NCBI RefSeq assembly: GCF_006345805.1 | Contig: NW_021836174.1 | Span: forward strand, 3,756-67,755 | DNA length: 64,000 bases | Direction: 5' to 3' | Source of the DNA: Octopus sinensis | Taxonomy: Eukaryota | Shown here: positions 41,101 through 44,100 of the stretch, one piece after another | Numbering within the stretch: the first letter of the stretch is position 1 | Layout: each line of letters starts with the position of its first letter | The notes under the pieces: model-generated | Told to the model about the DNA's origin: nothing | What the model saw: the letters and a program-made list of their open reading frames with translations, nothing else | The model's database searches: none | Translations under genes and position numbers: made by a program

Positions 41101-44100
41101 TATATATATGTGTATATATATATATATATATATATATATATATATATATATATACACACACACACACACACAATATATATGTGTATATATATATATTATA
41201 TATATATATATATATATATATATACACACACACACACACAATATACATGTGTGTTTATATATGTATACTAGCAGTATCGCCCGGCGTTGCTCAGGTTTGT
41301 AAGGGAAATAACTATAAAGCATTTTTAGAGAGTTATAGCCAAAATAATGGAAAAAAATGATGGTAAATTTTTTTTTTAATTAAAAAAGGTCGAGTTGCGT
41401 CCCCTAGACAGTTTGTGGTTCGTGTTTCTGATTGTCGACCCCATGTCGAATTTATCGATTTTTTTCAGAACTGGGGGAACTTTTCAAAATTTTCGCTGCG
41501 TTAGTTTTGAATTATGGCATTGGGCTATGTGTGTGTCAAGTTTCATCAGAATTTAGAAATAGCAGTCAAAGGGTTATAGCTATTTCTTCTACTAAAAAGG
41601 GAGATCTCAGTAAAAACAGCAATTGGAAGGCTGACACAAACAGGTAAGAGAGAATGAATTGACTGCAATCTATCATACATTTTTTAAGTTATCTACGGAC
41701 GTACGTTTCGAAATCAAGTTTTTAGGAAAGCATAAGAATTAAATATTAAATATTAAATAATTCTATCTTACCGAAACTTCTTTTCTCTTCAGCATAGAAT
41801 ACTATAATCATAAATGATATATATTGAATTTTGAGATACTAGGAGGCACCAACTCAACTCAGTATCAGAGCGAGCTAGAATCCGCAACTAGTATCACCGA
41901 ATTCAAATTTGTGAATGAAACGATTGTGTCAACAGCCCCTTCCCACCCGCGTGTAGCCAAAACAAGATGCTGTGGTCATCTACTGAGATAAAATATGGTT
42001 ATCCGTAATAATGAAGGGTGAAATTAATTAATTTGGAATAATTATCAATTACACCAAGTAGTCTTCGGCATGTAAAAGCCTCAATCGAGGAAAATTTAAG
42101 TAATACTAAGCAATAAGGGTTTAGCAACGAATTGCCTTACCACATACCGAATTTAGAAATAGCAGTCAAAGGGTTATAGCTATTTCTTCTACTAAAAAGG
42201 GAGATCTCAGTAAAAACAGCAATTGGAAGGCTGACACAAACAGGTAAGAGAGAATGAATTGACTGCAATCTATCATACATTTTTTAAGTTATCTACGGAC
42301 GTACGTTTCGAAATCAAGTTTTTAGGAAAGCATAAGAATTAAATATTAAATATTAAATAATTCTATCTTACCGAAACTTCTTTTCTCTTCAGCGTAGAAT
42401 ACTATAATCATAAATGATTATATATTGAATTTTGAGATACTAGGAGGCACCAACTCAACTCAGTATCAGAGCGAGCTAGAATCCGCAACTAGTATCACCG
42501 AATTCAAATTTGTGAATGAAACGATTGTGTCAACAGCCCCTTCCCACCCGCGTGTAGCCAAAACAAGATGCTGTGGTCATCTACTGAGATAAAATATGGT
42601 TATCCGTAATAATGAAGGGTGAAATTAATTAATTTGGAATAATTATCAATTACACCAAGTAGTCTTCGGCATGTAAAAGCCTCATTCGAGGAAAATTAAG
42701 TAATACTAAGCAATAAGGGTTTAGCAACGAATTGCCTTACCACATACTGAATTTAGAAATAGCAGTCAAAGGGTTATAGCTATTTCTTCTACTAAAAAGG
42801 GAGATCTCAGTAAAAACAGCAATTGGAAGGCTGACACAAACAGGTAAGAGAGAATGAATTGACTGCAATCTATCATACATTTTTTAAGTTATCTACGGAC
42901 GTACGTTTCGAAATCAAGTTTTTAGGAAAGCATAAGAATTAAATATTAAATATTAAATAATTCTATCTTACCGAAACTTCTTTTCTCTTCAGCGTAGAAT
43001 ACTATAATCATAAATGATTATATATGAATTTTGAGATACTAGGAGGCACCAACTCAACTCAGTATCAGAGCGAGCTAGAATCCGCAACTAGTATCACCGA
43101 ATTCAAATTTGTGAATGAAACGATTGTGTCAACAGCCCCTTCCCACCCGCGTGTAGCCAAAACAAGATGCTGTGGTCATCTACTGAGATAAAATATGGTT
43201 ATCCGTAATAATGAAGGGTGAAATTAATTAATTTGGAATAATTATCAATTACACCAAGTAGTCTTCGGCATGTAAAAGCCTCATTCGAGGAAAATTTAAG
43301 TAATACTAAGCAATAAGGGTTTAGCAACGAATTGCCTTAACACATATATACATATGCATGCACACACACACACACACATAGGCAAATTTGTTGTTGAAAA
43401 TGCAATTAAATTTGAAAAACTTGTAATTGTTTAAAATATATTTATTTACATATATACCAAGCTAATTTCAACAACATTTTTTTGTTTATCAATAGTAAAA
43501 ATTTAGAATTATGAATTAGAAAGACATATTTAAAAGTTTCGATGTTGACAAGTTTAAATGTTCATAACAGTCAATTATATAAAAACTGTGCATCAACTTG
43601 TTTAATTATACAAAGCTCATTAGTATTAATAGTGACCGACAAGAAATGAATATCATCAGAGTTTCAATGAGAGTTAAGAGGGAGAAAAAGAAGAGATGAT
43701 GATAATAAAAAAAAGTGTAGGAACTTTCACTTGTAATGGTGTGTTTTGCAATCCGGTCTACTTATAATTTTTTCTGCAAGCAGATCCAATTTTGGATTCA
43801 TTAAAGTACTGATGACGTCTTGCTTTTAATAATAATGAAATTATTGTATACAGTGCTCAGGTGCACCACAACTTGTCAAGGTATATGCAGTAGTGTACAA
43901 ATGTCTGGAAAGCGAACAATGCATGAGTCAGATACATGCTTGTGTGTGTATGGAGGGGAGAAAATCAGGTGTAGTGTTGGCGAATCTCAGGAAGCATGGA
44001 AGTTTTGAAGGATGCAGTGCTCCGACAACTAACAACTGATGCCGGCAGTTTGTTCCATGCTTCAGCAACTCTCAGCGTGAAAAAATGTTTCCTGAAGTCA

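Follow-up and report, generated by a model that had tools for sequence, protein, structure and literature searches.

Metazoan non-LTR retrozymes are described as non-coding tandem repeats with one type I hammerhead ribozyme per unit (PMC7229834; bioRxiv 10.64898/2026.07.22.740005), and the working definition in the preprint is a minimum of two successive units in which the type I motif is complete. These sources give several other features of the group: (i) the GC content is below 45%, (ii) the monomer is highly self-paired, (iii) the arrays consist of few repeats, and (iv) LTR features are lacking. Invertebrate retrozymes are 170-400 nt long (PMC7229834), with 350-390 nt in mussel; the consensus lengths in the preprint range from 51 to 972 bp, the average for ray-finned fish being 650 bp. 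Cleavage and circularisation have been shown for the coral, mussel, and axolotl retrozymes (PMC7229834), and one of nine predicted Xenopus dimers was cleaved in vitro in the 2026 preprint.

Another group of related ribozymes resides in Penelope-like elements, within their pseudo-LTRs (PMC4209133, PMC8557442, PMC11167929). These hammerheads have type I topology, a G10.1-C11.1 pair, a short palindromic stem III, and a position just before a fixed 3' end of the element; their cleavage is reported to be slow or protein-assisted. Penelope-like elements also show inverted truncated end fragments (PMC8557442) and a microsatellite neighbourhood. In Octopus vulgaris, 190 Penelope-like families account for 6.83% of the genome, and 31 of them were recently active (PMC13282606); in Octopus bimaculoides, the element Hydra-1_Obim carries a sense-strand hammerhead about 100 nt from its fixed end (PMC8557442). 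The Penelope link of retrozyme insertions has so far consisted of co-occurrence and homology. Since the 2026 preprint (10.64898/2026.07.22.740005) derives retrozymes from pseudo-LTRs, an interpretation as a retrozyme and an interpretation as a pseudo-LTR form a continuum.

Here we analyze a tandem array in a 64-kb stretch of Octopus sinensis DNA (64,000 nt, hereafter the window). The preliminary description had proposed a cephalopod retrozyme or Penelope-type element, and the computation supports this reading. The array is a short head-to-tail insertion of an octopus repeat with very many copies, and we consider this repeat to be probably a non-LTR retrozyme, a non-coding and non-autonomous derivative of a Penelope-like terminal repeat. 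The array and its units are as follows:

41549..43339, minus strand: tandem array comprising 2.985 copies of a 600-bp unit, more than 99% identity, 34% GC
41549..42148, minus strand: unit 1
42149..42748, minus strand: unit 2
42749..43339, minus strand: unit 3, lacking 9 nt at its high end

As first described, the units are three near-identical 600-bp copies beginning at 41549, 42149, and 42749; with unit 2 as the reference, identity is 99.3% for unit 1 and 99.5% for unit 3. The start of the array stands as originally placed. Its end had been set at 43346, a position reached only via one mismatch into the flank; the exact match stops at 43339. Since unit 3 is thus 9 nt short, an antisense transcript would yield two exact 600-nt monomers and not three. 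No further copy of the unit was found elsewhere in the window. The sense strand of the element appears to be the minus strand, which places its 3' end at 41549.

The unit shows the non-coding, low-GC character of non-LTR retrozymes: 34% GC, no Pfam or protein match, and no tRNA. The earlier statement that it holds no open reading frame of 60 or more amino acids is correct for ATG-started frames, the longest of which in the array are below 50 codons, but not for stop-to-stop frames, which reach 64 codons and contain no Met. None of the seven short frames of the unit matched a Pfam family. On the minus strand at 41549-41680, an ATG 18 nt past the predicted cut opens a 44-codon frame that runs to the element end; no protein relatives of this frame were found. 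A 45-codon frame has a single match, P0001, a tandem-repeat translation (best pairwise E 0.018), and was rejected as a protein remnant, since the weak matches in it add up. Neither a reverse transcriptase nor a GIY-YIG frame was found in or beside the array at this locus; thus, it differs from Penelope elements in having no linked reverse transcriptase-endonuclease frame, as well as no 30-40 nt tail. At 600 nt, the unit is longer than the invertebrate retrozymes described (170-400 nt, PMC7229834). A distinct family had been suspected on the ground that described units are shorter; the preprint range covers this length, which therefore does not justify setting up a new class.

A hammerhead motif is present on the minus strand of every unit. 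The copies and, for copy 2, the parts are:

41692..41798, minus strand: type I hammerhead copy 1, with a U-G pair in stem I; predicted cut 41698/41697
42292..42398, minus strand: type I hammerhead copy 2; predicted cut 42298/42297
42892..42998, minus strand: type I hammerhead copy 3; predicted cut 42898/42897
42398-42393 with 42297-42292, minus strand: stem I of copy 2
42392-42386, minus strand: core of copy 2
42385-42310, minus strand: stem II of copy 2
42309-42306, minus strand: GAAA of copy 2
42306-42299, minus strand: palindrome (stem III) of copy 2

The motif consists, in order, of a 6-bp stem I, CUGAAGA, a 76-nt stem II, GAAA, ACGUACGU, and GUC, and the closing pair of stem II is G10.1-C11.1. 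The core elements CUGANGA, GAAA, and NUH occur in type I order in all three units, so that at least two consecutive units each contain a full hammerhead. All core bases, the GUC, the palindromic stem III, and the 6-bp stem I, whose pairing is kept by the U-G of copy 1, were found as initially reported; the motif is not a "minimal" one.

The octopus motif shares with the Penelope pseudo-LTR hammerheads the type I topology, the G10.1-C11.1 pair, the short palindromic stem III, and the position just before a fixed 3' end, and differs from them in its 6-bp stem I and in the lack of an extra base after A9. With its loop, stem II measures 76 nt, compared with at most about 53 nt in PMC8557442 File S2 by our own count; the longest entry there, PLE-X1_sMoe, is marked as deviating, and the Hydra rows are below 25 nt. 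Hydra-1_Obim differs from the octopus unit in being autonomous and in its short stem II, and its hammerhead row, compared by eye without alignment, shares the core alone with the unit. The 76-nt stem II also distinguishes the octopus element from metazoan non-LTR retrozymes as far as their description in the sources goes. Far longer insertions are carried by the mammalian Clec2 hammerheads (PMC6765202).

When a strict descriptor was used, asking for a 6-bp stem I, a 4-bp stem II closed by G-C, and a palindromic stem III, none of 3000 dinucleotide-shuffled versions of the unit gave a match; a loose one matched three of 3000; on the window, the strict descriptor gave three matches vs none in 40 window shuffles. 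These figures flatter the motif, because the descriptor was composed after the motif had been seen. An Rfam scan of 40000-45000 up to E 10 returned no hammerhead among 28 matches, which were microsatellite-driven microRNA and other weak ones. The long stem II is the likely reason, and an Rfam match is not a defining biochemical feature.

Folding points to a ribozyme that works in pairs. On its own, the 107-nt motif does not reach significant stability (copy 2, z -1.1; copy 1, z -0.6), whereas stem II by itself does (z -2.4; 18 of 1000 shuffles). In the tandem context, stem I and the base of stem II are predicted to form with p 0.86-0.96 and 0.94-0.97, respectively. The requirement for dimers suggested at the outset is supported: the 2-bp stem III of the monomer is not predicted to form (p 0.04), whereas an 861-nt transcript carrying two motifs is predicted to join them through the 8-bp palindromic helix III (p 0.8-0.95). 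Two motifs folded without constraints gave a double hammerhead at -49.6 kcal/mol, compared with 2 x -18.6. Thus, the hammerhead is predicted to cut itself only when two neighbouring motifs pair, like that of axolotl and unlike most invertebrate retrozymes (PMC7761336). Given that eight of the nine dimers in the preprint were left uncut, the octopus copy may, by analogy, be slow or inactive.

Structure extends over the whole unit. The predicted cut-to-cut monomers and the most prominent hairpins are:

41698..42297, minus strand: predicted 600-nt monomer 1; circular fold -152.1 kcal/mol, z -6.0
42298..42897, minus strand: predicted 600-nt monomer 2; circular fold -149.5 kcal/mol, z -5.6
41555..41587, minus strand: 9-bp hairpin 6 nt before the element 3' end; computed on the 42755-42787 copy, p 0.97
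41824..41906, minus strand: long hairpin upstream of the ribozyme; one compensatory pair, 41840/41890, in other copies

The circular monomer reaches z -5.6 to -6.0 on the ribozyme strand, the high self-pairing typical of non-LTR retrozymes, vs -2.8 on the opposite strand; control folds of 18 strands from nine windows, with 12 shuffles each, gave z from -1.65 to +2.03. The 493 nt outside the ribozyme carry the fold signal (z -5.97 vs -2.91). Linear folds are near-equal in every phase (-149.8 to -156.7), so that folding does not single out the cut-to-cut monomer. The strand bias of the folding suggests selection on RNA. An inverted repeat of 18 nt (83%), 41643-41660 with 41755-41772, would allow the 5' arm of stem II to pair downstream of the cut; a conformational switch of this kind was rejected, since the alternative fold is disfavoured by 4.4 kcal/mol locally and by 17 kcal/mol in the circle, with p no higher than 0.01.

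Variation among copies in public sequencing runs bears on the same structures. Among 40 listed of 59 variant rows, none affects the core; about one would be expected, and with 40 of the 59 rows listed the lack of core variants is weak evidence. The variant at 41694 turns a U-A pair of stem I into U-G and keeps the pairing, and that at 41702 turns GUAC into GUGC, the dimer helix being kept by two G-U pairs (-8.8 vs -9.8 kcal/mol); both are present at about half of the depth of run X1. At 41840/41890, an A-U pair appears to be jointly replaced by G-C in single contigs of runs X9 and X10, judging from equal depth and span. The 30 rows scored comprise 13 unpaired, 10 pair-keeping, and seven pair-breaking variants (one compensated), which is not significantly better than the chance baseline, in which 214 out of 382 random transitions placed at paired positions preserve the pair. 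The rows outside this count are one flank row, the second allele at 41881, and eight rows mainly from one diverged X20 contig.

The array lies within a gene encoding an LRP2-like (megalin-like) protein. The exon at 37083-37373 is 100% identical to such a protein labelled Octopus sinensis, which maps to 22 stretches along the plus strand. The surroundings of the array are:

40865..40980, plus strand: upstream exon of the LRP2-like gene, LDL-receptor class A repeat
41268..41552, plus strand: high-copy host repeat interrupted by the array; left limit set by eye
43340..43380, no strand assigned: CA/TA microsatellite at the other end of the array; short overlap with the last bases of the unit
about 46262-46390, plus strand: next LRP2-like exon

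The array is therefore intronic and antisense to the LRP2-like gene; approximately 43% of the Xenopus retrozyme copies are intronic as well. Because the ribozyme is antisense to the host transcript, that transcript would not be cut, and nothing suggests a role of the ribozyme for the host gene. At the left junction, the host repeat, putatively Helitron-like, and the element end overlap by 4 nt (41549-41552). Public contigs show the host repeat running on past 41552 into other sequence (60 in X1, and also in X9 and X20), and this usual continuation is absent from the window. Since the host repeat normally continues otherwise at 41552, the array represents an insertion that was accompanied by a loss of target sequence. 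At the array ends, no duplication of the target site reaching 5 nt was found. The junction contains ATT, the sequence cut by the lizard Penelope enzyme PAc (PMC11167929), and the adjoining microsatellite is a neighbourhood shared with Penelope-like elements.

These data bear on the interpretation of the array as a satellite, or as an internal tandem repeat belonging to the DNA repeat next to it, that multiplied as DNA and carries an incidental or dead hammerhead-like motif. The abutting high-copy repeat, the failure of Rfam to recognize the motif, and the insignificant stability of the 107-nt motif alone would all fit such an origin. We nevertheless regard it as very unlikely: the different continuation of the host repeat at 41552 means that the array was inserted into that repeat, and the strand-biased folding of the unit is not shared by the host repeat, which has a fold z of +1.5 to +1.8.

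The unit belongs to a dispersed family, present in 20 of the 24 listed public runs, which span six organism labels and nine studies; it was found even in two runs of just 6 million letters. None of the runs listed with the unit is labelled as RNA. In run X1, 9652 of 52.2 million contigs fall on 41430-42148 with all 30 bins covered, a count that spans 719 nt including a 119-nt flank and is not a copy number; 2948 of these contigs are at least 99% identical and 2310 are below 95%. End-to-start joints of the unit occur in two of four runs (X1, X9) and, as loose ends, in X10 and X20; one of them lies in a copy that is about 86% identical (37 differences in 269 letters). Head-to-tail joints in a diverged copy and loose ends in further runs imply that the tandem junction is a trait of the family, which thus combines multiple dispersed copies with head-to-tail units, as non-LTR retrozymes do. 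Two exact patterns used in metagenome scans gave 0 and 0 matches.

It is most improbable that only one unit was inserted at this locus and that the assembly tripled it in error. In favour of such an artefact, three inter-unit differences are single-base indels in low-complexity runs, and no read or contig was seen to span the array at the locus; against it, two substitutions set unit 1 apart from units 2 and 3, one substitution distinguishes the two junctions, and head-to-tail junctions exist in independent runs. Even if the triplication were false, the family and its tandems would stand.

One X20 contig, which represents a second locus, switches at 41883 to the reverse complement of 41549-41570 and then enters foreign DNA. 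On the ribozyme strand, this one contig shows an inverted 3'-end fragment at the 5' end of a truncated copy; the fragment ends at 41549, the same element end as in the array, and inverted truncated ends are shared with Penelope-like elements. The candidate Penelope-type insertion signature, comprising (i) a fixed 3' end, (ii) an inverted truncated 5' fragment, and (iii) partial tandems, is drawn from this locus and one contig. Other joints skip the stem II region, from 41697 to 41789 in X1 and from 41722 to 41820 in X20, the letters between being unread; one of them starts exactly at the predicted cut site (41697). These joints likely hint at subfamilies with other ribozyme arms. In X9, two contigs start at 41993 right after an (AT)n run, as truncated copies abutting a microsatellite.

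The strongest competing interpretation is that the unit is simply a pseudo-LTR belonging to an autonomous Penelope-like element and surviving in truncated partial tandems; the ribozyme would then serve the full-length element, and the unit would have no circular life of its own. This origin is suggested by the location of the ribozyme close to a fixed 3' end, which is also its place in Hydra elements and PAc, by the inverted terminal fragment in the X20 contig, and by the ATG 18 nt past the cut with its 44 codons to the element end. Several features of the family make us rate it as unlikely, though well above the satellite and artefact explanations: the head-to-tail junction occurs throughout the family, even at an identity of about 86%, the entire unit beyond the ribozyme is structured, the two short frames have no protein relatives, and the share of X1 contigs running on into unlike sequence rounds to 0 among the loose ends listed, the contigs being short.

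For the preferred retrozyme reading, the following life cycle can be proposed. A minus-strand transcript through the tandem units would form double hammerheads via the palindromic stem III, and these would cut it every 600 nt. The resulting monomers would be ligated to circles, as in the coral, mussel, and axolotl retrozymes. A Penelope-like reverse transcriptase-endonuclease, presumably contributed by a Penelope-like element of octopus, would next nick DNA rich in AT and copy the circle back from a fixed internal position, which lies just beyond the hairpin and 149 nt downstream of the cut. At this locus, the template may have been traversed about three times; alternatively, one insertion may have been followed by local duplication. 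Because both array ends lie at a unit boundary, local duplication of a linear unit fits as well as rolling-circle copying. The start site has a possible counterpart in lizard PAc, where the enzyme starts in a stem-loop approximately 85-92 nt past the ribozyme cut (PMC11167929; our own arithmetic). In octopus, the element end lies 149 nt past the cut and 6 nt after the 9-bp hairpin; the parallel is suggestive only, and by analogy with PAc (PMC11167929) the hairpin at 41555..41587 is a candidate signal for the start of reverse transcription.

In the literature searched, no octopus or cephalopod hammerhead retrozyme was found, nor was a paper on a long stem II in natural type I motifs. Relative to this literature, the new elements are the cephalopod host group and the long stem II; the unit itself may already be listed in Repbase, Dfam, or the O. 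vulgaris library as a Penelope element or satellite. A retrozyme here would add cephalopods to the animals with such elements and would reveal, in a repeat that is very common in octopus, a ribozyme invisible to a standard library scan; the picture of what retrozymes are would remain unchanged. With its size and variety, the family lends itself to testing whether cleavage depends on the long stem II, and it could serve to test the Penelope signature (fixed internal start, inverted ends) of retrozyme insertions.

A broader claim can be put forward tentatively, as a possibility that we hold to be rather doubtful: that octopuses harbour a very large and active family of circular-RNA retroelements that cut themselves, whose hammerhead with a 76-nt stem II works only in pairs, as an uncounted layer of such elements, and that the fixed end marks the start of reverse transcription by a Penelope enzyme within the circle. 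If so, Rfam and short-stem descriptors would miss this form, leaving long-arm retrozymes uncounted, and the fixed end 149 nt past the cut would provide a direct handle on retrozyme mobilisation.

Splice signals were noted on both strands. In the sense of the host gene, the plus strand has a near-consensus donor at 41642-41650 and a strong acceptor at 41780-41794 (repeated at +600 and +1200), the latter being the reverse complement of the ribozyme core; from sequence, these could define a 451-nt cryptic exon per unit. In three runs guessed to be RNA, the unit appears unspliced, no spliced joints were seen (contigs show presence, not absence), and its contig depth is below that of the flanking repeat, depth being no measure of expression. 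A Penelope-type intron competing with cleavage, with a donor-like site in stem II and an acceptor 141 nt downstream, was rejected because the acceptor A at 41632 is nearly absent in other copies and no splice joint was seen.

Several other repeats were observed in the window. On the minus strand at 57396-57509, the loose descriptor has a match whose stem II base is only 2 bp, near chance level. At about 25200-29900, within an LRP2-like intron, frames of 175, 325, and 825 codons read like the gag, protease-reverse transcriptase, and RNase H-integrase of an LTR retrotransposon, presumably a Gypsy-like one, and are flanked by matching short repeats at 25198 and 29847. Fragments at 5744-6433, 32251-33169, and 43965-44453 resemble C-terminal portions of putative LINE reverse-transcriptase frames. 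Minisatellites at 14490-14925, 35775-36101, and 50632-51082, with periods of 26-27, 63, and 82, share a GGCAC/GGTGCC-type word.
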